Below are positions 8,889 through 23,428 of a stretch of DNA of 40,000 nt, in pieces. The notes beneath the pieces are model-generated. The model was not told where the DNA came from. It did no database searches and worked only from the letters and a program-made list of their open reading frames with translations. The stretch lies in contig NZ_NBVR01000034.1 of the NCBI RefSeq assembly GCF_002607735.1, positions 6,328 to 46,327 on the forward strand, given 5' to 3'. Source of the stretch: Proteus alimentorum (GTDB lineage Bacteria > Pseudomonadota > Gammaproteobacteria > Enterobacterales > Enterobacteriaceae). Every line of letters begins with the position of its first letter. The stretch's first letter is position 1. Made by a program: the position numbers and the translations under genes.

Positions 8889-8930
8889 AATAATATCCTT
8901 ATTTAGATTTCCATTATTTAACACAAAAAA

Positions 8931-8950
8931 CACTGTTTAAATATACAGTA
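8931..8950 (-). promoter_or_regulatory. LexA (SOS) box overlapping the promoter of the 8001..8888 gene
   Basis: CACTGTTTAAATATACAGTA matches the TACTG(TA)5CAGTA consensus at 17/20, with CTG-N10-CAG intact. On the minus strand it overlaps TTGTTA (8962-8967) -16 nt- TATATT (8940-8945). Confidence 0.65.
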
Positions 8951-9409
8951 TATTTACTAAATAACAATCTCTATATTAAATTTTAGAAAATAAAATAACG
9001 ATAATAAAATCAAATAAATAAAAGCAAGTAACACATAATATATCTATAATTAATCAAATAAAGAAAAAATAAAATAGAAAAACTTAAGAAGAAAGATGAT
9101 GACCGAGCTTTATATAAAACTAATCCAACATAGGTTAAGTAACTTATTTAACAATTACTTTTGATCTTTTTAAAATATAAGAAGAGATAAAAAAGCGAGT
9201 TGCTTTGATATGGATGTGCAAAATCGCACATCAATAAAATGATGTGTCTATCTCATCCGCAAAAATCGGGGCGCTCATTATCATAAATAATAAACAATAG
9301 TATAAATATTCGAAGGTTTAATCACATTCGAAAGCTTATATCATCTATTCAATGACCTTGAGCAAATTGCCCCATTCTGTTTTGATTAGGCGCTTCTCTA
9401 TAGCTATAT

Positions 9410-9442
9410 AAAAGAAAAGCCACCTTTATCAAATGATAAGGT
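9410..9442 (-). terminator. Intrinsic terminator, probably the original fliE terminator displaced by the prophage
   Basis: The minus strand reads ACCTTATCA-TTT-GATAAAGGT followed by GGCTTTTCTTTT. It begins 3 nt after the TAG that follows the attL copy of the fliE 3' end. Confidence 0.45.
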
Positions 9443-9445
9443 ACT

Positions 9446-9464
9446 ACACTTGCATGCTCATAAT
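9446..9464. repeat. attL core (19-bp direct repeat ACACTTGCATGCTCATAAT)
   Basis: Identical to 22843..22861. The flanks diverge on both sides. The repeat is the reverse complement of the last fliE codons (I M S M Q V). Confidence 0.8.
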
Positions 9465-9523
9465 ATGGGAGTACAGATATCGAAAATATGAAAAGTTCGA
9501 GTTAGTTCAAGATTAGCAGATGA

Positions 9524-9582
9524 TTACCGCAAATTATTTTCTCAAGCGTTAGTGAGTTCGAGAAAGTTTGCGGTAATTTTTT
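9524..9582 (+). terminator. Long hairpin plus T-run (terminator-like) in the attL-proximal arm; function unassigned
   Basis: Perfect 11-bp arms ATTACCGCAAA (9524-9534) / TTTGCGGTAAT (9567-9577) with an inner TTCTC/GAGAA pairing. The final stem T (9577) begins a six-T run, 9577-9582. Confidence 0.35.
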
Positions 9583-9646
9583 GCCCCCTATACGTCCCCA
9601 CCTACTACCTTCCTGCTATACTCTCCAAAAACTAACCAGATCCGTT

Positions 9647-9877
9647 ATGAACCTCGCAAACCTAACTCAAGAAGAAAAAGACAAGATTAATGTCGATTTA
9701 GCTGCTTCAGGTATCGCATATAAAGAACGCCTCAATATGCCAGTTGTCGCGTCCGAAGTTGAACGACAACAACCAGCACATTTGAGAGCGTACTTTAATG
9801 AACGATTGGCGTTTTATCGTGAGAAAAGTAAGAGTTTGCCGGACGGGAATTCGGTGCAGTATTTGAAAACAGAGTGA
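9647..9877 (+). CDS. Hypothetical prophage-end protein (moron-like)
   Basis: 76 aa from ATG 9647 ([13 protein letters not shown]...). The upstream part of the ORF has only a TTG start. No clear SD. The stop abuts the convergent tfa stop. Confidence 0.4.
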
Positions 9878-10294
9878 TTACTCTGGTTTTTGTGGCCATT
9901 CAATATCTGGCGCTAACGATGTATCCACATTTGTTAATGCATATCGATAACGTTGCCACAAATCCAATCGTTTAATATCCCTTTTTTCAATGTACCCGCC
10001 ATTTTGGGCATCAGACATCGGATCGATAACGCTAGTCGCCTCACTAATTAACGATGCCTTTTTTCTCTCTTCCACCATAACCATTTCATCTTTTGTTAGT
10101 TGTGGCTTATCTCCCCATGCTGGAAGACCGTCTATTGCAATTCTAATTTTATTATCCGGGGGATTTTTAGAGAACTCCTCATAAATACTATCATCAACTA
10201 ATATCGCATCTTCCGGAAATGTTCCTGCTGAAATGTAGTCGGACTTCATGTCTTCAGGATAAAACGAGTTTGTCTTTTCACTAAAAAAATACAT
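9878..10294 (-). CDS. tfa: Tail fibre assembly protein (Tfa chaperone)
   Basis: 138 aa directly after the tail-fibre gene. N-terminus MYFFSEKTNSFYP and C-terminus LWQRYRYALTNVD...IEWPQKPE are typical of the caudoviral Tfa family. Confidence 0.85.
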   Translation of the reverse strand: MYFFSEKTNSFYPEDMKSDYISAGTFPEDAILVDDSIYEEFSKNPPDNKIRIAIDGLPAWGDKPQLTKDEMVMVEERKKASLISEATSVIDPMSDAQNGGYIEKRDIKRLDLWQRYRYALTNVDTSLAPDIEWPQKPE

Positions 10295-10295
10295 A

Positions 10296-11735
10296 TTAAT
10301 ACCCCACCGCTAGCCACATTATACGAATATTTGGCGCCGTCATTTCTGTCGCTATCTTTGATAATGTTGATTTTGATAAATTGATACCGATGTTTTTAGC
10401 TCCGTCATAATCAATTATGGATACCGATGCTATTGATGAAGGGAATGCTATTGGTAGGTCAATAAAGAAATCATCATATGATATATCTTTTCTTCCCCAC
10501 TGATAAATAATCCCTGTATCACCACATTTCCACCACCCATTTTGAGATTTTAATGATGTGTTTTTGAGCCCGTAATTTCCTTTCGGTTGGTAATTTTTCA
10601 CAGCCTCACTTCTTGGTAAAAAAACATCCAACTCATCTTTAGTTACTGCTACCCCCTTTTTTTTCGGTAATGTAATTGCAGTATGATAATCAGATGTGTC
10701 ATTTGCTTCTTCTCGTGAATATACTGTAACTGATCCGTCAGATTCACGATAAAGACGAACTGAACCATTCGCGCAGTTAACAGATCCCCGCCCAGCAGAG
10801 TCCACTCCCCCTGTTATTGTGTGATTGCCATAATTTATTTTCTTATCTAACTCTTTCGTGAAATCACTGGTTGTTACATAACTTCCTGCTGGCTGATAGT
10901 TACCCGCTGGTTGTTTCTTTCCTAATTCCCTCGCTAATAAATCAAGACTGGGAACTTTGTTAACATCATTGCCCAACTGCTGAGAGATGCTGGCTTTATC
11001 AATCTTCTTATTAAGCGCCACATTCATCGCTGATGTAGTGACAAAATTAACTAAATCACTAATTAGCGCTGCGATACCTTTCTTCTTTGGAAGTTCAAAT
11101 GATGTAACATAATTTGATTCATTATCAGGAAGCTCCCTACTGAATATGGTGACCACTCCTGCGCTGTTTCTGTAAAACCTCAAAGAGCCATCTGCAGCAT
11201 TCACAGAACCATTACCTGCCGAGTCAACACCTCCTGTTATTGCGTGATTACTGAATGTTATTTTCTTATCCAACTCGCTTTTAAAGTCATTTTTATTAAC
11301 AAAGGTATCAGTAGACGCTTTCTGACTCATTACGCTTGTTGTTGACGTGCCTGTGGATTGGACTACTGCGGTTTTGTCGAGTTTGTTATTTACACCTAAA
11401 AAATCAGCTAGCGGCTTCCAAGCATTTTGCGAAGTATTCGGCTGTTCTCCCTTTGTTACTTTTAATGCAACATAAAAAACAGATGATTGCTGTACCAATG
11501 CATCTTTCGGATAATCAACTGCGTCATCCCACTCAGCTAAACCACGCTGTGTTAAATACATTAACCATTCATCGACACGTTTACCGATAGCGTTGAACCA
11601 TTCTAATGGGGGTTTTCCTGCTGTTCTTTCCAGTGTGACGCCCCATCCGCGAAGTACATCTGGAAATGTTTCTATCTCACCTGTTTTTGCATCTTGTGCA
11701 AATATTTTTAGGTCTGGCTTTTTAATTACTGACAT
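10296..11735 (-). CDS. Tail fibre protein
   Basis: 479 aa. Conserved fibre N-terminus (DLKIFAQDAKTGE...GWG...YLTQRGLAEWD). Two internal 73-aa repeats. C-terminal NGWWKCGDTGIIYQWG block typical of fibre tip domains. Confidence 0.85.
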   Translation of the reverse strand: MSVIKKPDLKIFAQDAKTGEIETFPDVLRGWGVTLERTAGKPPLEWFNAIGKRVDEWLMYLTQRGLAEWDDAVDYPKDALVQQSSVFYVALKVTKGEQPNTSQNAWKPLADFLGVNNKLDKTAVVQSTGTSTTSVMSQKASTDTFVNKNDFKSELDKKITFSNHAITGGVDSAGNGSVNAADGSLRFYRNSAGVVTIFSRELPDNESNYVTSFELPKKKGIAALISDLVNFVTTSAMNVALNKKIDKASISQQLGNDVNKVPSLDLLARELGKKQPAGNYQPAGSYVTTSDFTKELDKKINYGNHTITGGVDSAGRGSVNCANGSVRLYRESDGSVTVYSREEANDTSDYHTAITLPKKKGVAVTKDELDVFLPRSEAVKNYQPKGNYGLKNTSLKSQNGWWKCGDTGIIYQWGRKDISYDDFFIDLPIAFPSSIASVSIIDYDGAKNIGINLSKSTLSKIATEMTAPNIRIMWLAVGY

Positions 11736-12378
11736 TCATTAACCTCGTAAATTTTCCATCATTGAATCCGAGTGAGTACGGATCATTAGCCCACCCAAAC
11801 GGGTGAGAGTCAGTGATAACTAAATATTTATAATTGACACCTATTGGCCTAACTAAGATGTCCAAGTTTTTTATGGCGTAAAGCCTGAAAGGAGTTAAAT
11901 AATCAGCTGGAACTACAATATTCATTGTCATATCGTAGTTATCTATAACAAATGTTTGCTCGCCTAATAGGTTTCTTATGGAATATGTAATTCCCTCAAT
12001 ATCAGGTGATTGGTAATTTTTTGTGATCTTCGCTTCAATAAAAAAACGATAATCTTCATCATCCAGTTTTGATGATTCTTTCAATGAATCACCGTAGCGA
12101 TAAAAAACACCTGCATTAAAACCAAGAGCACCATCAATACCTAAGAACCCAAAATAATCCTTTGGGATAAATGACTTCATTATTCGATTAATACCAACAT
12201 GCTTGCCGATTAAGTCAAGCCCATATCCTGATGATTGTTTTACATTTAAGATTGTTGATAGTCGTATAACTGATTCAAATGACCTCTTTGTTTCAGATAG
12301 CAAAAGCCCGGCTGTTTGTCGGGCCTTGGGTTTTCCTCTGTATTGCCAAATTAGAAAATCTTCTCTTTGTTTACTCAA
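11722..12378 (-). CDS. Baseplate/tail-fibre connector protein (DUF2612-like)
   Basis: 218 aa. The N-terminus FLIWQYRGKPKARQ resembles DUF2612. It sits between the baseplate J gene and the fibre gene, with overlapping stop/start codons. Confidence 0.6.
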   Translation of the reverse strand: MSKQREDFLIWQYRGKPKARQTAGLLLSETKRSFESVIRLSTILNVKQSSGYGLDLIGKHVGINRIMKSFIPKDYFGFLGIDGALGFNAGVFYRYGDSLKESSKLDDEDYRFFIEAKITKNYQSPDIEGITYSIRNLLGEQTFVIDNYDMTMNIVVPADYLTPFRLYAIKNLDILVRPIGVNYKYLVITDSHPFGWANDPYSLGFNDGKFTRLMNVSN

Positions 12379-13495
12379 TTAGCACCTCCACATCTTCCGG
12401 CCTAATTTGAGCGCACTGTCTAACTCCAACTTTCACCGAATCTGAACCATTAACGGTAATGGATTTGATATAGAAACCTTGTACTGAGTTAACCTGACAA
12501 GTTAAGCGCATAGCATAGACTGATTCGCCTATTTCAAATGATGTGTCCGATAATGCTGATTTTATGCTTTCTGTGTCAATATCATGAAACCCACCTACCC
12601 TTTCCAATAAGAGCTTAACTTTAATATTGACGTTAGATGCTCTATCAAATTTAACTGTCCTTTGTGCTCCTGCATATTCTTGAGTATTGCTGATGCTCCC
12701 AAACACACCGCAACCACCTATTTTCTTTTTAAGAATAGTCAGACCTATATCATCATCACTGCCACCAATCACAACCGCATTTAGTGAATGAGCAGGTACA
12801 CCTTTATCATCTGTTTGGTTCGTGAAGTTTTCGTATACTCTAGCTTGTTTTACGTCAGGCAAATCAAGTAAAGCACCCTCAAGCCCTTGCCTGTCATCAT
12901 GATTATTAATTGAGTGCGAACGCATGAACCGGGTTAATAAACTACCGTCCATCTCTTCGAACACACCTTCTTTAGCTATTTTTGTTGTCGTTATTTTTTC
13001 AACACCAACAATCACTGTGTCCATCGACAACTCTTTCCCAGCTTGAATTGAGAAAGCGCCTAATTCATGACTTCTCATATTCACCCTTGCCGATCCATTA
13101 ATATCTAAAACAATATCAGCAAGTGTCACCCACTTTGATAAATTTCCATCTGAGAAAATAGAGCCTTTTGGTACCTTTACGCCTTGCTTTCCTGTTACGA
13201 TCACGTCATCTAAGTAACTATAATCTGCACCTCGACGAACAATGCCGGCATACATTGCTCGTTGTTCTAACCATGCGCCAGTTGCTTTGTAGGGATCTAA
13301 CATCTGAGCAATCATTGATAATGCCTGATTGATGCTGTCTATTTCTTGAGAGAATAAACCTATCATCTGCCCGTCAGGGCTATCTGCATCAATACTAATA
13401 TCATCGCCGTAAATCCGTTTAAAACCGTCAGTGAGGCGTTTATGCACATCTGACAGACTATCAATAACTATCCCTGTTTCAGTTATTTGGAGCAT
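12371..13495 (-). CDS. Baseplate J-like wedge protein
   Basis: 374 aa. The N-terminal region (DADSPDGQMIGLFSQEI...ATGAWLEQRAMYAGIVRRGA) is characteristic of the Baseplate_J family. Coupled to its neighbours. Confidence 0.75.
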   Translation of the reverse strand: MLQITETGIVIDSLSDVHKRLTDGFKRIYGDDISIDADSPDGQMIGLFSQEIDSINQALSMIAQMLDPYKATGAWLEQRAMYAGIVRRGADYSYLDDVIVTGKQGVKVPKGSIFSDGNLSKWVTLADIVLDINGSARVNMRSHELGAFSIQAGKELSMDTVIVGVEKITTTKIAKEGVFEEMDGSLLTRFMRSHSINNHDDRQGLEGALLDLPDVKQARVYENFTNQTDDKGVPAHSLNAVVIGGSDDDIGLTILKKKIGGCGVFGSISNTQEYAGAQRTVKFDRASNVNIKVKLLLERVGGFHDIDTESIKSALSDTSFEIGESVYAMRLTCQVNSVQGFYIKSITVNGSDSVKVGVRQCAQIRPEDVEVLIE

Positions 13496-13841
13496 CTGTG
13501 TTTACCTCATTTTCTTTTCCGTAAATATCAATATACGTGACAGATATTGTGAATCGTCGCGTGTCGGGATTAAGCTGGATATCAAAATCAGTGATCTGCT
13601 CTACGCCATCTGTATTTAAAACAGTGCCTTTTATCTCTGTTTCCATTGCGATGAGATTTGGATTTTTTCGCAAGTAATCAAACCAGCGAACACCATGCTC
13701 TGTGTTGAGAAACCAGTCATTACGCAGAGATAGAAGTCGCGTTAAAACAGATTGGCTAATCGCCTCAGATTTTGTTGCGTAGTCAGCTCGCCCGCTTCCG
13801 AAAGTCCAATCATGATTATTATCAAGTCGTCTTACTTTCAT
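13479..13841 (-). CDS. Small baseplate wedge protein (GpW/gp25-position)
   Basis: 120 aa. Its position immediately upstream of baseplate J and the overlapping coupling are the only evidence. Sequence family not firmly recognised. Confidence 0.5.
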   Translation of the reverse strand: MKVRRLDNNHDWTFGSGRADYATKSEAISQSVLTRLLSLRNDWFLNTEHGVRWFDYLRKNPNLIAMETEIKGTVLNTDGVEQITDFDIQLNPDTRRFTISVTYIDIYGKENEVNTDAPNN

Positions 13842-14494
13842 TAATTGGGCGCTCCTGTATTTCCATGACCGGTTTCAACACCACTATGAGTATGCGTATC
13901 ACCAATATTTTTGCCGTTGTGTTTAATGGAGCCACCTGATGATTCGCTATTGCCTTTCACTGAGTGATTACCATTTATAAGCGTATTACCTTCTTGCGTA
14001 TTATTTCCTGTGTGTTCGATATCGCCTTGAATAAGGATCTTCCCTTTTTTCATTCGAATAAATGTTGAACCATCATCGGTCTGCATTGATAGTGAATCAC
14101 TGGAGTAATCAGGTATCTTATTTGGCTGACTACTTCCCATCGGTAGGAAGAAAGCATCAGATAAATCATGAAATCGTGTATCTAATGGCACGGATTGTTT
14201 GCCTGAAGCATACCAGCCATCAATGCAACGCTCGGAAAATATAGCCAGCCCCTCATCACCCTCTTTCAATGGAACAGTAACACAAAAGCCACCTCCACGA
14301 TAAAATCCAACTGGCACATCGACTAGAGGAGGCAAGGCAATCGAACCACCATCTTTCATTAAGTGGGTTATCATTAATTCAACTGTTGCGCTATGTCCGT
14401 CACATGAAATAAGACGGGCGGGTAATGCTGTATGTATGTCTTGCCGTTGGTTTTCTGATTGTCTCGATAAAACATCCAGTAGAGATGGTTCCAT
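13841..14494 (-). CDS. Baseplate central spike protein (Gp138 N-terminal-domain-like)
   Basis: 217 aa. N-terminus DIHTALPARLISCDG...VELMI...LPPLVDVPV. Gly/His-rich C-terminus (GDTHTHSGVETGHGNTGAPN) typical of spike tips. Confidence 0.6.
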   Translation of the reverse strand: MEPSLLDVLSRQSENQRQDIHTALPARLISCDGHSATVELMITHLMKDGGSIALPPLVDVPVGFYRGGGFCVTVPLKEGDEGLAIFSERCIDGWYASGKQSVPLDTRFHDLSDAFFLPMGSSQPNKIPDYSSDSLSMQTDDGSTFIRMKKGKILIQGDIEHTGNNTQEGNTLINGNHSVKGNSESSGGSIKHNGKNIGDTHTHSGVETGHGNTGAPN

Positions 14495-15318
14495 TATTTT
14501 TCCACCTTTTTAAACCTGCCGCCTATGCAGGTAATTTGTGAATACCAATCATCACCAAGAAAATCACCCTCATGGCTCAATTCAGTAATTTTATAATCAC
14601 CGTTATATTCAGACATGATTGACTGAACTCTAACTAAGCCACCAATGCGCAATGATGGATTACACAAACACGTTAAACTAAGACCATCATCCGTTTTCTC
14701 AGGTGAGCCAACCATTCCGGTTTCTTGTGAAAGCACAAAACCCTCGTTATCAGCAAGCACCTTATCTTTGGGTAATACAGTCATTTGACCATCTTGAATA
14801 GACCATTGAACATCGTTATTCTTGGCTATCTTGTGAAGTAACTCACGAGGATCGCCGAACATCACTTTACCTCGAGGAAGTTGCCTATCTTTTGGTAAAT
14901 CAACAACACCAGTCTCTATCCCCATCGACTGAGTATTTTCTTTCAGAATTTCAGCGTCACTCTTACCAGCTGACAGTGTTTTATTTACCACTGATGATGT
15001 GTAGGCTTTAAAACCATCACCACATATCAACTCACTAATAAAATCCTCACCATCTCTCAGCGTGTTGGCTTCAACAATATCGCCTGCGTAAATTTGACGT
15101 AGTTCTTCATAGCCCACTGACAGTGAGGCCCTATTGAATTCGTTGCTTGTTAGTAAGTTACGATGAGAAGCGTTGAGGTTATAAATTCTGATAACTGCGG
15201 GATTTGGTTCTGGTGTTAATGTTTTTTTTACTTCGAAAGTTACTCTAAGGTTTGTTATTTCTAATGATTCTTTATCGCTGCCAATAACTAATTTAAGTTG
15301 TCGTCCGAATTGCCTCAC
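14494..15318 (-). CDS. Baseplate hub-like protein
   Basis: Start reassigned to GTG 15318, which has AAGGAGG 6 nt upstream. The longer ORF overlaps the preceding gene by 50 nt. 274 aa, in the baseplate operon. Confidence 0.55.
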   Translation of the reverse strand: MRQFGRQLKLVIGSDKESLEITNLRVTFEVKKTLTPEPNPAVIRIYNLNASHRNLLTSNEFNRASLSVGYEELRQIYAGDIVEANTLRDGEDFISELICGDGFKAYTSSVVNKTLSAGKSDAEILKENTQSMGIETGVVDLPKDRQLPRGKVMFGDPRELLHKIAKNNDVQWSIQDGQMTVLPKDKVLADNEGFVLSQETGMVGSPEKTDDGLSLTCLCNPSLRIGGLVRVQSIMSEYNGDYKITELSHEGDFLGDDWYSQITCIGGRFKKVEK

Positions 15319-15631
15319 GCCAAACCTCCTTATCAACAACATATAACCTAAGTCGATTACCTAGCTCATTTTGAGAGACCGAGTTAATACCGAACTGTGA
15401 CTTATCAGATAGCATTAGAATAAAAGGTAAGTTCTTTTCTAACAGCGAAGGCGCATTAACAGCTAACCCCTGACGTTGAGTGATCACTCTATTTTTATCC
15501 GCATCGAATAGGTCAAACTGCCAGCCTTTTGATACAGAATTAAAATAAAGTGTTAAGCGAATATTCATATCGAACAATATAAATATCTGCTCCTGACTGG
15601 GTTTGCTTGATACTGGTATTTCATAAATCAT
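15293..15631 (-). CDS. Hypothetical baseplate-module protein
   Basis: 112-aa ORF translationally coupled on both sides within the structural operon. Confidence 0.5.
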   Translation of the reverse strand: MIYEIPVSSKPSQEQIFILFDMNIRLTLYFNSVSKGWQFDLFDADKNRVITQRQGLAVNAPSLLEKNLPFILMLSDKSQFGINSVSQNELGNRLRLYVVDKEVWREAIRTTT

Positions 15632-16392
15632 GGCTTAATCCCCATCATATCTTTTAGCGCGCCTGCACCGTCTTTTATGAGAGATGAATTACCACCTTTA
15701 ACCTTATCAGTAGGTTGTGTGCGCCCCATATTCTGTTTTTGAGGCTGACCTTTTAAATCAGGATGAAGCCCTTTTGCGGTCTGATTCTCAACAATAAATA
15801 TCTCCTCAAGGGTTAAAGTAACCTCAGCAGAACCCGGTTTATCTTGAATCGTACCGATATTCGTTATCATCATGTTTTTGTATAACTTAATACCCGTTTG
15901 CACATCTATCGTTTCACCGCGTTTTTGCAGTGATAACAAACTATCGTAAGCTCGACCAACTCTATCTAGTGTTTGAGATGTATCAGCGCTACCTATGCCA
16001 GAATCGGGATACCACGGTGCTAATACTTTTCCTACGGCATCAAGACCAGCATTAGCAATGCCAATATATTGCTCAATCATTGCTTCTGCTTGTTTTGTAT
16101 TCGCTGATATTTCTAATGGCAATGGGTAATCATCAAGCACGGAAGTATCGAACCCCGTCAGGTTCTTAAAGTTTTTAGGTGGCTCATAACCAACAACAAC
16201 GCCTGTTACAGTTAATGTTTTAGGTTCTAGAATCGCGTGATCTGCAATGTCAGCACCAGACTCAACAGGGTTCTTTGTTAGTCGTAACGATGAGGCGTGC
16301 TCTTCTCTTACTGTGCAATCGAGAATGAAGTCACCAATAGAGCGTGTAATCACCGACGCTCTACCTGTAAATAAACCACTTGTTAAGTCCAT
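15628..16392 (-). CDS. Tail/baseplate structural protein (first surviving gene of the structural operon)
   Basis: 254 aa, GGAG RBS 6 nt upstream of ATG 16392, coupled to the downstream genes. Family not firmly recognised. Confidence 0.5.
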   Translation of the reverse strand: MDLTSGLFTGRASVITRSIGDFILDCTVREEHASSLRLTKNPVESGADIADHAILEPKTLTVTGVVVGYEPPKNFKNLTGFDTSVLDDYPLPLEISANTKQAEAMIEQYIGIANAGLDAVGKVLAPWYPDSGIGSADTSQTLDRVGRAYDSLLSLQKRGETIDVQTGIKLYKNMMITNIGTIQDKPGSAEVTLTLEEIFIVENQTAKGLHPDLKGQPQKQNMGRTQPTDKVKGGNSSLIKDGAGALKDMMGIKP

Positions 16393-16404
16393 ATTGGCTC
16401 CAAT

Positions 16405-16430
16405 AAAAAAGGCCGCTTATGCGACCTTTT
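16405..16430 (-). terminator. Intrinsic terminator after the 201-aa membrane-protein gene
   Basis: The minus strand reads AAAAGGTCGC-ATAA-GCGGCCTTTT (one mismatch) running into a T-run. It lies between stop 16446 and the structural-gene start 16392. Confidence 0.55.
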
Positions 16431-16445
16431 GAGAAATTTTAATAT

Positions 16446-17051
16446 TCAAAAACCAAACTGCTCATGGTAAATACAGACTATGGTAGCAGATAAAATAAAA
16501 CTTAAGATCAAAATAAGCCAATCAAAACGTGTTATTTTTGATATCTTATCAGAAACTGGAAGCTTTGGAAGATCTTCAAGCTTCATGTAAAATGAGAAAC
16601 TTACCGCCATTGCCACCATAAAACCAAAAAACAAATACAACTTGTTAGATATACCAATAAAACCAGTAATGAAGAAAAAAGGTGTTACCAGATCAAGAAA
16701 ATAAATAACCATTAACCAAGCTAATTGCGTCTTTGGAGTTAAAGGTGATTTATTTCTTTTCTTTATACAGCTACACAAAAACTCAATGAGTTTAATTAAA
16801 AAATATGAAACAATCCCAGCAATAAAAGAAGTCTTCAAAATACCGCTAGCTTCAACCCCCCCAAACATTAGGGATATAAAATATGGGCATAAAAAAGAAA
16901 TAGCAAAAGTTACTAGGACTATTGCTAAGAAAAGAAAGATTCTAACCTTTAGTTTATTTACCACTTCTGCTTCTATTATTTTTTTTGTTGTAGTTTCTAT
17001 TGTCGCTTTTATTGTAGTTTCTATTGTCGTTTTTGTTGCTGCCACTTTCAC
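16446..17051 (-). CDS. Multi-pass membrane protein of unknown function (prophage moron)
   Basis: About 200 aa, GTG start with GGAG upstream. A charged N-terminus carries a TIETT(I/T)K repeat, followed by about five hydrophobic helices. Terminator-like hairpins lie on both sides. Confidence 0.55.
   Translation of the reverse strand: MKVAATKTTIETTIKATIETTTKKIIEAEVVNKLKVRIFLFLAIVLVTFAISFLCPYFISLMFGGVEASGILKTSFIAGIVSYFLIKLIEFLCSCIKKRNKSPLTPKTQLAWLMVIYFLDLVTPFFFITGFIGISNKLYLFFGFMVAMAVSFSFYMKLEDLPKLPVSDKISKITRFDWLILILSFILSATIVCIYHEQFGF
16988..17035. repeat. 2 x 24-bp tandem repeat inside the membrane-protein gene
   Basis: ttgtagtttctattgtcgctttta / ttgtagtttctattgtcgtttttg, 22/24 identical. It encodes the duplicated TIETTIKA/TIETTTKK segment. 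Confidence 0.85.
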
Positions 17052-17118
17052 CTTCTCCCCATAACACCCTTAATTGTTAATTTAACTTAACATTACATTA
17101 TTACTAATTGAAGTTAAA

Positions 17119-17141
17119 GAAAAAAGCCTCAGTTAAGAGGC
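17119..17141 (-). terminator. Intrinsic terminator after the RexB-like gene
   Basis: The minus strand reads GCCTC-TTAACT-GAGGC followed by TTTTTT. A second hairpin (cagaagg...ccttctg, 17171-17192) lies just before it. Confidence 0.45.
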
Positions 17142-17203
17142 GTGGTGAAATTCAGGTAATAAGAAACCCGCAGAAGGCAGTATTACCTTCTGAAAACAAA
17201 AAA

Positions 17204-17641
17204 TTAATTATTTTTCTTTATGTTCAAGAGTTGAATCCCAAGGAAACCTATAAGTAAAAAAGTTATCATTGAGAAAGTTAATGAGTATGATGCAACCTTA
17301 ATACTTTGTATGTTAGACAAGCAAAGCAAGGACAGGCACATTGTAACCCCAAGCTCAAGAAAAGTTATCATATAAATAAAATAAGTTGTGTGTAGATAAC
17401 CACCTTTTTTAAAGTTATCTAATCTCGGCCCATCCAATCCAAAAATCACAACAACCATAGCTATAAGTAATGCCATCATTGCTGTTGAGTAGGTAACCAG
17501 AGACGAACCTAGGTTACCTAAGTTGTCTTTAAAGGTAACCGTATGGAAAAGGTATTTTTTTGACAGGTAAAGCGCACCAAATCCCACTCCATTGCAGAGT
17601 GCGATCACAGTGAGCCCTGTCATGAAATCCTTTATTTTCAT
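17204..17641 (-). CDS. rexB: RexB-like four-TM membrane protein
   Basis: 145 aa (lambda RexB is 144 aa) with four hydrophobic helices. The block YLHTTYFIYMITFLELGVTMCLSLLCLS parallels YMTSVVIVYALSFVELGALFFCGLLLLS of lambda RexB as recalled. It starts 11 nt after the RexA-like gene. Confidence 0.6.
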   Translation of the reverse strand: MKIKDFMTGLTVIALCNGVGFGALYLSKKYLFHTVTFKDNLGNLGSSLVTYSTAMMALLIAMVVVIFGLDGPRLDNFKKGGYLHTTYFIYMITFLELGVTMCLSLLCLSNIQSIKVASYSLTFSMITFLLIGFLGIQLLNIKKNN

Positions 17642-17652
17642 ACCATTACCTC

Positions 17653-18462
17653 TTAATAACCCAAGTTTCTTAGAGTTGCATTGTTAGTGTAGTTGTTTTC
17701 CATCTGTGTGTTTATGTCTGTAGTGCTACTTGTATTTACAAAGTCACAAACGGTATTGGACATGATTACATTCAGATCAGTAGCCACATCCCCGATATGT
17801 TCCTTAGCGGACACTGCAACCGATGTTACTTCCTGAGGCATTGCGCTCATCACTCCTGAGAATGTGTCTTTAATGTCTCTTGCTCTTTTTGGTATTATCT
17901 TTATCTCAAAAGAATCAACATCATCGTATGAAACGTTACCCGCAAATAATGTGCCTAGGCGACCAATCAGATTCTGAGACTTATCTAACTTCATTGTTAT
18001 TCTACCAACGTGAGCATAGTTAAGTACTTCTTGTTCTGTTACCTGATTCGCTATCGGTTCAAAATTTATATTGTGATTATTGTTTCTTGCTAACATTACC
18101 AAGTCATAAATTTCAGCTAGCTTACCTATTCTTGGTGAGTACAAAGTATTGCTAAAGCCAATTAAATTGTTCTTAATAATGAAGAATGAAGCGAAGGCTA
18201 TCTTTTCATTTGCGGTTAATATCTGAGATAAATCCACACATATATTATTACTAAGATCCAGCTTTCTAAATACATCTCTACTGTTAGTCTTTATGAACGT
18301 ATATACATCACCAGCAACAGGCTGAATGACATAGTACTCTCCAGCCATATTTGCCGTGTTATTTCCACTTGATATCATTGAATCTATTGTGTCTTTTAGG
18401 CTTTCTGATGGCACGTAACCATCAACTGGAAGATACCTGTAAGTAAAATAATTTGTTTTCAT
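17653..18462 (-). CDS. rexA: RexA-like protein
   Basis: 269 aa from MKTNYFTYRY (ATG 18462). By eye it is collinear with recalled lambda RexA: FIKTNSRD vs FTKTNDKS, IAFASFFII..LIGFSNTLYSP vs LGFPSFLFV..TIGFARTVFGP, HVGRITMKL vs FIGRTTVKV, SFEIKIIPKRARDIK vs SLDIVIKPKFKRDIK. Confidence 0.6.
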   Translation of the reverse strand: MKTNYFTYRYLPVDGYVPSESLKDTIDSMISSGNNTANMAGEYYVIQPVAGDVYTFIKTNSRDVFRKLDLSNNICVDLSQILTANEKIAFASFFIIKNNLIGFSNTLYSPRIGKLAEIYDLVMLARNNNHNINFEPIANQVTEQEVLNYAHVGRITMKLDKSQNLIGRLGTLFAGNVSYDDVDSFEIKIIPKRARDIKDTFSGVMSAMPQEVTSVAVSAKEHIGDVATDLNVIMSNTVCDFVNTSSTTDINTQMENNYTNNATLRNLGY

Positions 18463-18579
18463 CCCTAATATCCACGTAATTTTTTTACGTAATTTTAGGA
18501 CATAAATTAAATTTATACATCTGTGAATAAAAACACTGGTTTTATATTCACAAACTATATATGTAGCCATAACAAGATA

Positions 18580-18623
18580 TACTGCATATATATACAGTAT
18601 ATCTTGTTTTTTTGATGCCTCAA
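18580..18623 (-). promoter_or_regulatory. LexA (SOS) box plus overlapping sigma70-type promoter upstream of the RexA-like gene
   Basis: 18580-18599 TACTGCATATATATACAGTA matches the LexA consensus at 19/20. On the minus strand TTGAGG (18618-18623) -16 nt- TATACT (18596-18601), so the box covers the -10 element and the start site. Confidence 0.7.
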
Positions 18624-18720
18624 GAGAAGTCTTGTAAAGATTATTTTAGTAATTCGGCTATCTTCGGACAAGATTGGGATTGGTGCTTTCAGAAAACAAC
18701 AAGCCGTCCTTGGCTTTATG

Positions 18721-18965
18721 CTATTTATCCGTAATGGTAAATTGTTTCTTTAGCTCTGAAACTATTTCATATTTTAATTTTGATAATGCATCATGAGTTA
18801 TTTTTTCTTCATCAAATTCGCTTAGATAAAATTCAATAGCTTGAACAATTTCTGAGTTAATAGACCGTCCATTTCCTTTGCTCTTTCAGCTATAGCATCC
18901 TTCATTCCGTCAGGAAGCCTTAGATTAAACCTATCCTGTAATTGGCTTGGGTACTCTTGCGTCAT
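18721..18965 (-). pseudogene. arc: Arc/Mnt-type ribbon-helix-helix repressor gene with a 1-nt frameshift
   Basis: ATG 18965 (AAAGG RBS) gives MTQEYPSQLQDRFNLRLPDGMKDAIAERAKE. The frame then breaks in the A-run at about 18871-18874. The shifted frame continues NGRSINSEIVQAIEFYL...TITDK*, restoring the Arc signature FNLRxP...ENGRSxNSEI. Total length is 245 nt, one short of a multiple of three. Confidence 0.7.
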
Positions 18966-19011
18966 TTCGTTACCTTTATTTTTATCCAATGCTTGATCAT
19001 TACTACTATTG

Positions 19012-19926
19012 TTATGCGATTAGTGGAGTATTTAAAATATCTCCGCTTTTCTCACCTTGTAGAACTTGAGTGCGCAGGCGGAAGTTTTGTAACAACTCAA
19101 TGAGAGCATTAGAGTCACGTTGTAATTTTTGAATATATTCAACACTGACAACGTTATGACCATCAACACTAACTACTTGTTGCTTGCCACCCTTATAAGA
19201 AACCAACCATCTACCTTCTTTTGGTATGGTTACAGTGATTGAGCTTTGATTCGGCTCAAAAAGTATATTTTCTTCCTGTTTAGGAATGTATTCACCTTCA
19301 AGTACAAATTTGTGAATATACTCAACCGCATCAGGTATCTGATCCGCTGTTAATTCTTCAATGCTACTAACATTGAATTTCTGGTGAACAAGAGAATAGG
19401 CTTCTGGATACATAATGCCTTTCTTGCTAACCAATAGATTGACAGCATTCTTTAATGGGTTGCGTTCTTGAACAGTTGATTTGTGTTTTTTCTTAACCTC
19501 ACCAGTAGTCCAGTATTCGTAAAGTACATCGTCACATTCTTCTTGATACTTGATTACTTTATCGCGGATCTCTGGTTTGACTTTGTTAGGGCTGATAGTG
19601 TGAAGCCAGCCAGATAATTTTCTAAGAGCGATACAAACCATGTTACGCAATTTTCCATCTTCGGCAACCATTTCGATTTCCGAAACACTTGAATTAAAGC
19701 GTTGTTTTAACTTGGCAAATTGAGCACCCCATGCTAAACCCATACCCTCTACGATAGGGCGCATTGGTACATATGGTTCGCCATTGAAATTTACTACATA
19801 CAAGTTGTTACCGTGGAAAGTTGCTTGGATTATTTGGTGATGATGCTTGGTATAACGGCTGGCCAACTGTTCCCAACCCTGAATATCTAAGAATGGAATC
19901 ACGATTAAACGCTGTTCGTGAGGCAT
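19012..19926 (-). CDS. ant: Phage antirepressor (P22_AR N-terminal domain type)
   Basis: 304 aa. FHGNNLYVVNFNGEPYVPMRPIVEGMGLAWGAQFAKLKQRF...MVAEDGKLRNMVCIALRKLSGWLHTISPNKVKPEIRDKVIKYQEECDDVLYEYW matches this antirepressor family. The N-terminal start is uncertain. Confidence 0.8.
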   Translation of the reverse strand: MPHEQRLIVIPFLDIQGWEQLASRYTKHHHQIIQATFHGNNLYVVNFNGEPYVPMRPIVEGMGLAWGAQFAKLKQRFNSSVSEIEMVAEDGKLRNMVCIALRKLSGWLHTISPNKVKPEIRDKVIKYQEECDDVLYEYWTTGEVKKKHKSTVQERNPLKNAVNLLVSKKGIMYPEAYSLVHQKFNVSSIEELTADQIPDAVEYIHKFVLEGEYIPKQEENILFEPNQSSITVTIPKEGRWLVSYKGGKQQVVSVDGHNVVSVEYIQKLQRDSNALIELLQNFRLRTQVLQGEKSGDILNTPLIA

Positions 19927-19948
19927 TAAAACAAATAAAGGTGGAGTG

Positions 19949-20191
19949 ATGGATAAATCAAGGCAGCAGTTTGAAGAGTGGATAAATAAAAACCACCCTA
20001 AATGTAGTAAGTATCACAAGGATATTAGGCTTGAAGCATGGCAGGTATCACGCGACTCACTCTTATTAACTCTACCAGAAAGAGAGAAAAGTACAGGTAA
20101 TTATGATTATTTCACTGATGGATATAACAGTGGAATATCAGCATGTGAAACGGTCTTATTAGATAATGGAGTGAAAATAAAAAATGAATGA
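19949..20191 (+). CDS. Hypothetical phage early protein
   Basis: 80 aa from ATG 19949 with GGTGGAG RBS. First of a run of tightly coupled small ORFs. Confidence 0.5.
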   Translation: MDKSRQQFEEWINKNHPKCSKYHKDIRLEAWQVSRDSLLLTLPEREKSTGNYDYFTDGYNSGISACETVLLDNGVKIKNE

Positions 20192-20339
20192 TAAATATAA
20201 AGCCGAGCTAATTAACGGCAAGCCAGTTATTTTATTAAATGGGAGTATGATTGAAAAAGGATTTATTTCAATTATAGATGCGGAACAAAAGGCTGATAAA
20301 TTAAATCAAGCATCAATAAAAAATAACCAAGTCGAATAA
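20184..20339 (+). CDS. Small hypothetical phage protein (51 aa, hand-translated)
   Basis: ATG 20184 overlaps the previous stop. MNDKYKAELINGKPVILLNGSM... Below the ORF-track cutoff, supported only by the coupling pattern. Confidence 0.3.
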   Translation: MNDKYKAELINGKPVILLNGSMIEKGFISIIDAEQKADKLNQASIKNNQVE

Positions 20340-20351
20340 AACAAAATAACC

Positions 20352-20513
20352 ATGCAAATAATCGGATATGTATTACTCATGCTAATACAGGGTTCTGCTG
20401 TGCCTGTAACGGAAGATATATATACGCAATTGGAATGCAATAAACGTGCTGAATATTTAATGTCAGTGAGGAATATTGAAGTTGTTTGTGGCGAGGTGAT
20501 TCATGGGAAGTGA
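20352..20513 (+). CDS. Small hypothetical phage protein (53 aa, hand-translated)
   Basis: MQIIGYVLLMLIQGSAVPV... has a hydrophobic N-terminus. Its stop overlaps the next ORF start. Confidence 0.3.
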   Translation: MQIIGYVLLMLIQGSAVPVTEDIYTQLECNKRAEYLMSVRNIEVVCGEVIHGK

Positions 20514-20712
20514 ACTAATTCAAATTCCAAGGAATTTGCTAGAGGAATTAGCGTCGGAGTATCAAGTTAAAATATCTTGGTTTATGGAGGCGTATAAGGG
20601 TTATTACGATGTGGTAGGTTCTAGATATAACAGGGATTACAACGATTATGTCGATAACTTTAATGTCGCCGCTGATTTATTAGGTTGGGATAAGATGGAG
20701 AAAATAGAATGA
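20503..20712 (+). CDS. Hypothetical phage protein
   Basis: 69-aa ORF in the coupled early-gene string. Confidence 0.45.
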   Translation: MGSELIQIPRNLLEELASEYQVKISWFMEAYKGYYDVVGSRYNRDYNDYVDNFNVAADLLGWDKMEKIE

Positions 20713-20885
20713 AAGATAAATATTATGCTGGATTAGAAAATTACAAAGATTGTATTGAGATTGAACCTACAACAAAGGATTGCTTTGTTTTAAATGCTCC
20801 ATCTTGGAATATGGATTTAACAAAACAGGATTTGATTGATATCAGAAATACTATTAATGAAATACTAGAGGCTGATAATGAATAA
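20709..20885 (+). CDS. Small hypothetical phage protein (58 aa, hand-translated)
   Basis: ATGA overlap with the previous stop. Its end overlaps the next ATG (20878). Confidence 0.35.
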   Translation: MKDKYYAGLENYKDCIEIEPTTKDCFVLNAPSWNMDLTKQDLIDIRNTINEILEADNE

Positions 20886-21237
20886 ATACACCGAACTATC
20901 TGACTTCGAGATTAATAAAAAGGTTGCTATTAATGTCGGTGGATTCGCACTATCTCTAATGGTTTTTGATGATCGCAATGGGGTAGTAAAAAAGAATATC
21001 CCAAATATTGGCTCGCGGGTATTCACTGAATTCAACCCATGCAACAACCCAGCCGACGCAATGACGATTATTATTGAGAATAAAATAGGAATGAATTTTG
21101 TTAATAACAATATAGGCTGGTCTGCAATTCATCAATGCATAATCAAAGGCGAGCTAGAAGTATATGGAAAGCGATACTATCGAACGGCAATGGAATTATT
21201 TTTATTAATGAAGGATGCGGAGAATGAAAAAGTATGA
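20878..21237 (+). CDS. NinX/DUF2591-like phage protein
   Basis: 119 aa. LSDFEINKKVA...FNPCNNPADAMTIIIENKI resembles the DUF2591 (NinX) pattern. Confidence 0.55.
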   Translation: MNKYTELSDFEINKKVAINVGGFALSLMVFDDRNGVVKKNIPNIGSRVFTEFNPCNNPADAMTIIIENKIGMNFVNNNIGWSAIHQCIIKGELEVYGKRYYRTAMELFLLMKDAENEKV

Positions 21238-21826
21238 CTTGATATTGTGCGACCCACCTTGGCCTTACAATAACAAAGTTTCAAATGGCGCAGCAGATAA
21301 TCATTATAACACCACCGATTTATATTCCCTCTCTCGATTACCAATAGAAAAACACTCCTCTAAAAATGCCGTGCTGTTTATGTGGTACACCGGAAACTTT
21401 GCACTCGAAGCAATTAAATTAGCCGAAGCATGGGATTTTAAAGTTAAAAACATGTTCGGGTTCGCATGGGTGAAATTAAATAAAAATGCAGGAGATAGAA
21501 TAAATAAAAAACCGCCAGAAGATTTTTTTGACTTTATGGAAATATTAAACAATGAGACAAAGATTAATTGCGGTAATTACACCCGTCAAAATGTCGAAAT
21601 GTGTTTAAGAGCCACAAGAGGAAATGGATTACCTCGTAAGTCTGCAAGCGTTAGGCAAGTTATTTATTCGTGCTTAGGTGAGCACAGCGAAAAACCAAAA
21701 GAAGTCCATCATCGTTTAGAGGAATTATATGGAGATGTTCCACGGCTCGAATTATTCGCTCGTGAGAAATACGGTGATTGGGATGTATATGGCGACCAAG
21801 CAGAAGAAAGTATTCAATTAATATAA
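21224..21826 (+). CDS. MT-A70 family DNA N6-adenine methyltransferase (orphan)
   Basis: MKKYDLILCDPPWPYNN carries the DPPW catalytic motif. About 200 aa. No adjacent endonuclease. The start could be ATG 21215 or 21224. Confidence 0.85.
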   Translation: MKKYDLILCDPPWPYNNKVSNGAADNHYNTTDLYSLSRLPIEKHSSKNAVLFMWYTGNFALEAIKLAEAWDFKVKNMFGFAWVKLNKNAGDRINKKPPEDFFDFMEILNNETKINCGNYTRQNVEMCLRATRGNGLPRKSASVRQVIYSCLGEHSEKPKEVHHRLEELYGDVPRLELFAREKYGDWDVYGDQAEESIQLI

Positions 21827-21839
21827 AAGGAAGAGAAAG

Positions 21840-22076
21840 ATGGATAACTTAACTCAGTTGATGCCAAATAAATGGGTGACAGAACCGGTTTTAGTTGCTA
21901 TCACAGGAATGAAACCGGGAACAATAAAGCGAGCTAGGGAAAGCTCATGGGCAATTGGCAGAGAATATATTCACGTATCGCCAGAAGGAGAACCAAAGCC
22001 AAACTCAGAGTGCATGTACAATCATCAGGCAATCAACACATGGATTGAGAGACAAATAAAGAAACAACCGAGGTGA
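21840..22076 (+). CDS. xis: Excisionase (DUF1233 type)
   Basis: 78 aa. KWVTEPVLVAITGMKPGTIKRARESSWAIGREYIHVSPEG...SECMYNHQAINTWIE matches lambdoid DUF1233 excisionases. It lies immediately upstream of int. Confidence 0.8.
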   Translation: MDNLTQLMPNKWVTEPVLVAITGMKPGTIKRARESSWAIGREYIHVSPEGEPKPNSECMYNHQAINTWIERQIKKQPR

Positions 22077-22080
22077 TGTA

Positions 22081-22835
22081 ATGATTAAATATCCGACTGG
22101 GGTTGAGCTGCATAATGGCTCCCTCAGGATAAATTTCGTTTATAAAGGAAAAAGGATTAGGAAATGGCTGGCTATGCCAGATACAGCGAAGAATAGAAAA
22201 ATTGCTGGTGAATAAGGCCGGGTGAGTTAACAGGATTAGCATGGGAGGATATAGACTTAGTTAAAAAGACAATAATGGTCAGAAGGAATGTTTGTGGCCC
22301 TTCCGACTTTTCATACCCGAAAACAGGTGCGAGCACTGATAGGATAATTAGTTTATTAGAGCCAGCCTTTAACTGCCTAAAGGATCAGTCTCTATATACA
22401 AAGATGACAGCTCCAATTGACGTTAAAGTAAAAACTCGTGAGTTTAATAAATATCGAACAGACTCATGCACATTTGTTTTTCAACCATCCATTGTTAGTG
22501 TGAATGGCGTTATTACTAAATTTTATTCACCGGGAGGTTTCTCGCAAATATGGAGATCATTAATTAGAAGATCTGGCGTTAGGCACAGAAAGTCATATCA
22601 AACAAGGCACACCTATGCTTGCTGGATGTTATCTGCTGGAGCGAATCCTGCATTCATTGCAACACAGATGGGGCACTCGTCATCAAAAATGGTACACGAT
22701 GTTTATGGTGCTTGGATGCCTGAGAACGATCAAGACCAAATATCGCTATTAAACCAAAAATTGAATGATTCTGTCCCCTATGTGTCCCCACCGAGTCACA
22801 ATAAAGGTAATATTCGACTTATATCAAATAGTTAA
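22081..22835 (+). pseudogene. int: Integrase with internal deletion and frameshift
   Basis: ATG 22081 encodes a 44-aa arm-binding N-terminus (MIKYPTGVELHNGSLRINFVYKGKRIRKWLAMPDTAKNRKIAGE) ending at TAA 22213-22215. A different frame opens at 22212 (..GELTGLAWEDIDL...TRHTYACWML...GHSSSKMVHDVYGAW). The core-binding domain and the first catalytic Arg box are absent. Confidence 0.8.
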
Positions 22836-22840
22836 CTCTA

Positions 22841-23152
22841 TCACACTTGCATGCTCATAATTTCTTGATAAGCGGCAACTAGCTTATTACGCACTTGTAC
22901 GCCCATTTGTAATGAGATACTGGATTTTTGCATATCCACCATCACATCATTTAATTCAACACCCGGCGTACCTAAGGTAAACGCTTGAACTTTGTTGGTT
23001 GCATTCACTCGAGTTTCATTAATTTTACCCACGGCTTGAACAAGCTGAGTTGCAAATCCTGCTTGTACTGGCTGGGGTTTCGCAATATTGGATGCTTGTA
23101 AAGTCTGGATTTGCATTTTATCCAGAACACTTTCAATAGCTGGAATTGACAT
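22841..23152 (-). CDS. fliE: Flagellar hook-basal body complex protein FliE
   Basis: 103 aa from ATG 23152 (AGAGG RBS). FTLGTPGVELNDVMVDMQKSSISLQMGVQVRNKLVAAYQEIMSMQV is nearly identical in pattern to E. coli FliE. Confidence 0.95.
   Translation of the reverse strand: MSIPAIESVLDKMQIQTLQASNIAKPQPVQAGFATQLVQAVGKINETRVNATNKVQAFTLGTPGVELNDVMVDMQKSSISLQMGVQVRNKLVAAYQEIMSMQV
22843..22861. repeat. attR core (19-bp direct repeat ACACTTGCATGCTCATAAT)
   Basis: Identical to 9446..9464. It lies within the last codons of the intact fliE. Confidence 0.8.
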
Positions 23153-23428
23153 ATAAACCTCTGCGTTAATCATCTAATTCAATTACTGAATCAATGTCAT
23201 AGTAAGGAAGTGAACCAACACGCTTACCGAGTTATACCCTAACACAGGGGCTTCATTCCAAAGCGAGTAATTAACGCAAAAGTTAAGGGCTAATTACGCC
23301 ATTAAATGAAACGCAAAAGGCCAATAATGAGACACCTGAGAGTAGGTTTATTTATTTGCGTAAGGGGAGTCTGTTTTGTTACGCCACGCTTTTAGTATTC
23401 ATCCCGAACTACAAGGCAAGGATTGTCT

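Follow-up and report, generated by a model that had tools for sequence, protein, structure and literature searches.

A prophage remnant in the last codons of fliE in Proteus alimentorum, at a recurrent landing site of one integrase family

The 40,000-nucleotide stretch of the Proteus alimentorum genome analysed here (the window) carries an element of 13.4 kb that adjoins the end of the flagellar gene fliE. We consider it very probable that this element (positions 9465-22842) is a decayed temperate Proteus phage, inserted by a lambda-type tyrosine integrase into an attachment site (attB) at the end of fliE. The element is bounded by a perfect 19-bp direct repeat, ACACTTGCATGCTCATAAT, and the two copies, attL and attR (Table 1), are free of mismatches to each other. 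The reverse complement of the repeat reads ATT ATG AGC ATG CAA GTG T, which are the codons for I-M-S-M-Q-V plus the T of the stop codon. Thus, the repeat is indeed made of the final codons of fliE, as an earlier note on this DNA had claimed. That note had also warned against a 19-mer that occurs at many genomic sites; the 3.84-Mb assembly contains exactly two copies at up to one mismatch. The window has no further copy at up to two mismatches, and 100 shuffles gave an expectation of 0.

The base preceding the core differs between the two ends. It is a T at attL, which on the fliE strand gives GTG TAG, and a C at attR, which gives GTG TGA. Apparently, integration left the FliE protein unchanged but changed the stop codon from TAG to TGA and replaced the 3′ flank; the earlier note had proposed the same exchange, and it is borne out by 14 Proteus genomes with an empty site, in which fliE ends in TAG. 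FliE is 96-100% identical to the protein of the six other Proteus genomes that have an occupied or scarred site. In our reading, attB would comprise the last six codons of fliE and the T of the stop codon, and the attP of the phage would bear its own 19-bp copy followed by GA, so that the recombined fliE at attR would still encode the full protein and end in TGA. At attL, the original TAG would have been left behind together with its hairpin flank, and the native 3′ flank is indeed found 13.4 kb from fliE in this genome. Fold prediction places an AU-rich hairpin and then a U-run directly past the TAG at attL. A hairpin is therefore present as had been noted, but it failed a simple terminator scan and its role as a terminator is only plausible. 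Beyond attR, the fliE strand offers its first terminator-like site about 900 nt downstream, at 21947-21930, antisense within xis.

If the element had been inserted in this way, related genomes should contain the uninterrupted junction of left flank, core, fliE and TAG. In 20 other genomes of Proteus species (21 with this one) the fliE and left-flank segments were searched separately and the junctions were read directly. The predicted empty junction was found in 14 of the 21: the left flank is followed by a single core and then by fliE ending in GTG TAG or GTT TAG, and in all 14 the hairpin flank that is now at attL adjoins the fliE stop. The left-flank match and the fliE match have exactly 19 bp in common in two of the genomes (G006 and G014); in several others, whose core differs in its right half, the overlap shrinks to 10 bp. 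The remaining seven sites comprise one full prophage, one remnant (the present element) and five scars. The full prophage, in P. vulgaris PR00166 (G018), measures 49,650 bp and is bounded by the same 19-bp segment in the variant ACACCTGCATACTCATAAT, identical at both ends. It has an intact Int of 433 amino acids, Xis, and terminase, portal, head, tape-measure and tail-fibre genes. The scars retain the last 86 codons of int (G012), about 95 codons of a 51%-identical int variant (G002), about 37 int codons (G017) or nothing but an arm-like motif (G003 and G009). Among the occupied and scarred sites the stop codon of fliE varies between TGA, TAA and TAG.

As a whole, the stretch from glpM to fliE is a hot spot of variation. 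Homology to the left flank begins in different relatives at window position 9130, 9187, 9203, 9260 or 9332, only about 110-330 bp past the fliE stop are shared, and in G012 and G003 the glpM-fliE stretch has been exchanged for other DNA. One frame of the native flank (9340-9392) reads HLFNDLEQIAPFCFD*, including NDLEQIAPF, and TGCCCCA is found at −78 from the core, a faint and non-significant resemblance to the C-terminal end and the arm motif of the integrase family. The idea that the left flank is an older integrase stub like intG of Escherichia coli is unsupported: with 14 integrases as queries, a permissive tblastn search of 8900-9464 reached an E value of 0.017 at best, for an unrelated match.

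A tyrosine recombinase gene adjoins attR, intact in PR00166 and a pseudogene in the window. What remains of int in the window are 44 N-terminal codons (22081-22212), a TAA at 22213-22215 and the C-terminal part in another frame from 22212. Compared with PR00166, 547 bp are missing; this is not a multiple of three and the internal deletion is out of frame. The BLAST segments at the deletion joint overlap by a few bases. The core-binding domain is gone, and in the remaining open reading frame no start codon precedes the first catalytic Arg box. The PF00589 fragment (22275-22835) covers just positions 107-165 of the profile and ends 7 nt before the core. Hence, the element encodes no functional integrase with a full catalytic set, and no other Int of this type was found elsewhere in the genome at an E value of 1e-60 or better. 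Since int appears dead and no helper of the same type was found in the genome at that threshold, the element is, as far as can be read from its genes, a locked remnant, the relic of a tyrosine-integrase system and not a live prophage. The earlier description of a prophage integrated into the last codons of fliE therefore stands in so far as the element is phage-derived, has attL and attR and corresponds to empty sites in relatives, but the int pseudogene and the missing modules make it a defective remnant.

The gene content leads to the same picture. Open reading frames of at least 50 amino acids tiling 9465-22842 were scanned with Pfam and PHROG, overlapping shadow frames being left out. The only virion genes that survive are a baseplate and tail-fibre block, and upstream of the baseplate module tape-measure, tube and sheath genes were not found. 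Head (capsid), packaging (terminase), portal, lysis, replication and repressor genes are likewise not found in the element by these scans. With phage genes present but no essential module for head, packaging, lysis or replication, the element has the make-up of a cryptic prophage. The early region (19946-21826) is collinear with the PR00166 prophage and its segments share 88-96% DNA identity with it. For the region from the baseplate to the Rex genes, there are no close DNA relatives in 24 related genomes, where just two short repeated intergenic pieces match, and therefore deletion joints beyond that in int could not be mapped. The two pieces (16402-16443 and 17116-17177) flank the open reading frame for 201 amino acids and have 83-97% identical copies at several unrelated loci in other Proteus genomes; they could represent a short repetitive element or terminators common to these loci.

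The small size, the att sites, xis and a cargo that includes a defence pair are also what one would expect of a helper-dependent satellite or mobilisable island that is 13 kb long by design and not by decay. We regard this as very unlikely: a primase or replication module and capsid-redirection or packaging genes are lacking, the integrase is broken, the early region is collinear with that of a full-size prophage at the same site, and half a tail module left without its counterpart speaks for deletion, not for design. Still less likely is an intact, inducible prophage that continues to excise from fliE. In its favour are two perfect att cores, the arm motifs and an intact xis, but the deletion in int, the missing capsid-to-repressor genes and a length of 13.4 kb against 49.65 kb in the intact relative are hard to reconcile with it. 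Equally improbable is a domesticated R-type tailocin with the remainder as its integration scar, because the contiguous baseplate, spike and fibre module, with its open reading frames, stands without the required sheath, tube, tape-measure, tail-terminator and lysis genes, none of which was found in 9465-22842.

The decay of a temperate phage, which we favour, would have involved later deletions that cost the phage most of its genome, including 547 bp of int, and after these losses the element would be unable to excise on its own. It has kept its att sites, arm motifs and xis, and an integrase of the same type acting in trans might still excise it. RexA/RexB, the methyltransferase, the theta homologue, Ant and the baseplate and fibre block would then be cargo or debris, and it is tempting to see in the exclusion pair the likeliest reason for the retention of the remnant.

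The architecture of the attachment site also points to the lambda type. To view attP, the two ends of the element, about 250 nt each, were joined. TGYCCCC-like motifs, putative arm-type sites, are found at −172, −70, −59, +138 and +149 from the core, and these distances are the same in the window, the PR00166 prophage and the coliphage IdasGreatGrand, in which the DNA between the motifs is unrelated. Morganella, Izhakiella, Fels-1 and a wrbA-type phage likewise carry the tandem motif at the int 3′ terminus. Together with the presence of Xis, the repeated motifs at conserved distances in three attP sites suggest a lambda-type mechanism with predicted arm-type sites. Int would probably bind to core sites in the 19-mer and to the TGYCCCC-like arm-type sites, and Xis would control the direction of recombination. 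It should be added that Fels-1 and phage P14437 carry a tandem TGCCCCA, 11 bp apart, at the 3′ end of int though their targets differ; the arm motif seems to be family-wide and the core differs.

Several points weigh against our interpretation. The putative arm-type sites are placed by the position of the motifs, the crossover can be placed no closer than within the 19-mer, and the presumed loss of excision is read from the int defect alone. Moreover, a single simple crossover into an attB like that of the nearest relative (G016) fails to explain the form of the core. The window and G016 differ at 8 of 578 positions (99% identity), and four of these eight differences fall in core positions 11-17 (22853-22859), where they affect 4 of 7 bases. 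They change Ser TCG in G016 to AGC and Ile ATA to ATT, and both attL and attR of the window have the AGC/ATT form. Of the Proteus sites, all seven that are occupied or scarred have ATT as the Ile codon, as do 3 of the 14 empty ones; because the genomes are related, these numbers do not make a valid statistical test. The variants may be read in two ways: phage-borne codons may have been copied into fliE and stayed after loss of the prophage, or synonymous attB variants may be a barrier to integration. The wider notion that lysogeny by this phage family rewrites the end of a flagellar gene and leaves lasting marks, or that attB variants decide who is lysogenised, we hold to be rather unlikely.

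The earlier note had regarded a structural flagellar gene as an unusual attB. This view has to be abandoned: 7 of 21 Proteus sites are occupied or scarred, and Morganella, Izhakiella and E. coli use the same site. Morganella psychrotolerans has a truncated int (77% identical) and Izhakiella australiensis a full int (45% identical) adjoining fliE. In E. coli K-12 the pseudogene intG (b1936), annotated as "cryptic prophage PR-G", is convergent with fliE and overlaps its end. A 228-bp query of the K-12 intG stub and the first 31 bp of the fliE end was searched in 5426 complete E. coli genomes: 5308 gave at least a partial match and 2683 a match over at least 80% of the query length. Even the weakest match listed runs about 60 nt into the stub. 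Altogether, an int that is convergent with fliE and touches its stop is present in the window, P. vulgaris, Morganella, Izhakiella and E. coli K-12, and a copy of the fliE end is present in the attP of IdasGreatGrand. The fliE end is, as these junctions indicate, a common site for this integrase family.

In a tree of 14 Int sequences, the four fliE-site integrases fall into one clade (support 91/90) together with those of Fels-1 and the wrbA type. By themselves they are not a clade, and the tree requires at least two changes of target. In a sample across the order, six relatives of Int (33-47% identity) were found and none of them adjoins fliE. From this mixed tree and the relatives away from fliE, it follows that the target has apparently changed within the integrase family. 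A phage collection contained no isolated phage with a close integrase, the best match having 47% identity. A full-text literature search yielded no description of fliE as an attachment site, and the word fliE is absent from the candidate papers. The element is undescribed in Proteus and of an already known kind; it is real but ordinary.

The kind is best seen by comparison. The intG stub of E. coli K-12 is the 3′ end of an integrase gene that is convergent with fliE and touches its 3′ end; it aligns to residues 378-415 of the Proteus Int with 53% identity, and the core at the fliE end, ACACCTGCATGCTCAT, is nearly the same. However, K-12 has kept only about 280 bp of int, whereas in Proteus 13.4 kb with both att sites remain, and the host belongs to the Enterobacteriaceae and not, like Proteus, to the Morganellaceae. 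Escherichia phage IdasGreatGrand (PP925829), an isolated temperate coliphage, has the same order of xis, int and attP, an Int that is 47% identical over 98% of its length, the arm motifs at the same distances from the core and an attP that contains CTACACCTGCATG, the end of E. coli fliE. Unlike the element, it is a complete phage of another host with a shorter match between attP and fliE, and its Int groups in the tree with Fels-1 and the wrbA-type integrases and not with the Proteus Int.

The prophage e14 and phage 21 integrate in the 3′ end of icd and supply a replacement gene end. By analogy, an attP that bears the last codons of the gene would keep the host protein functional in Proteus as well, but the target gene is another one, and the duplicated segment in Proteus is just 19 bp and entails no amino acid change. 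The wrbA-type Stx phages are relatives in Int only (46% identity) and share the tandem TGCCCCA at the 3′ end of int. With lambda Int, Xis and attP the system has in common a tyrosine integrase with a putative N-terminal arm-binding segment, a neighbouring excisionase and motifs on both arms of a short core, whereas arm motif, core and target are different.

The best phage matches of the element are Proteus phages. In the Proteus phages Brookers and Pm34, too, the theta-like gene adjoins attP. Both phages have theta and methyltransferase genes as flanking neighbours in common with the element, with a different integrase in opposite orientation between these genes. Judged by this gene order, the integration module is swapped relative to Brookers and Pm34. 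The features of the element and its borders are compiled in Table 1.

Table 1 Features of the fliE-end element and its borders (positions in the window)
Feature	Position	Strand	Basis
Native fliE 3′ flank, now detached: last two bases of TAG (9444-9445) and AU-rich hairpin with U-run	9410..9445	-	Same flank adjoins fliE in 14 empty-site genomes; fold
attL core, 19-bp copy of the fliE end	9446..9464	.	Repeat search of window and assembly
DNA polymerase III theta-like gene, first inside attL	9581..9877	+	Pfam PF06440, E 6e-34; PHROG 1105
P′ arm: tandem TGCCCCC/CGTCCCC, 11 bp apart, +138 and +149 from core; candidate arm-type Int-binding sites	9582..9599	+	
Tail-fibre assembly protein and tail fibre	9878..11735	-	Pfam Caudo_TAP, Gp53-like_C
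Baseplate module: DUF2612, Baseplate_J, sheath initiator (weak, below Pfam cut-off), spike, hub gp41-like, plug, Dit-like	11722..16392	-	Pfam
Open reading frame for 201 amino acids	16446..17051	-	No Pfam, PHROG or PADLOC match
RexB-like and RexA-like phage-exclusion pair	17204..18570	-	PADLOC RexA E 1.5e-106, RexB E 5.7e-52; Pfam
Arc-like fragment and antirepressor (Ant)	18822..19926	-	Pfam Arc, P22_AR_N; PHROG 524
Small early-region open reading frames, NinX-like gene, MT-A70 DNA methyltransferase	19946..21826	+	Pfam; PADLOC MTase_II
Excisionase (Xis, DUF1233), apparently intact	21840..22076	+	Pfam PF06806, E 7.5e-31, profile positions 3-69/70
Integrase pseudogene	22081..22835	+	Alignment to intact 433-residue Int of P. 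vulgaris PR00166
P arm: inverted TGCCCCA at about −172; tandem TGTCCCC at 22772-22778 and 22783-22789 (−70, −59), within int 3′ end	22668..22789	+	
attR core, last six codons of live fliE; phage gives last two bases of TGA (22841-22842)	22843..22861	.	
fliE open reading frame; true start probably 23152	22841..23173	-	Pfam PF02049 (FliE), E 1.9e-26

The element raises no new mechanistic question. It is a clean example of how a phage lands at the end of an essential structural gene without harming the gene, and the end of fliE is a recurrent landing site of one integrase family in several enterobacterial genera. For the annotation of Proteus genomes, this means that the region between glpM and fliE is a prophage hot spot, which explains the variation between strains in the stop codon and the 3′ flank of fliE.

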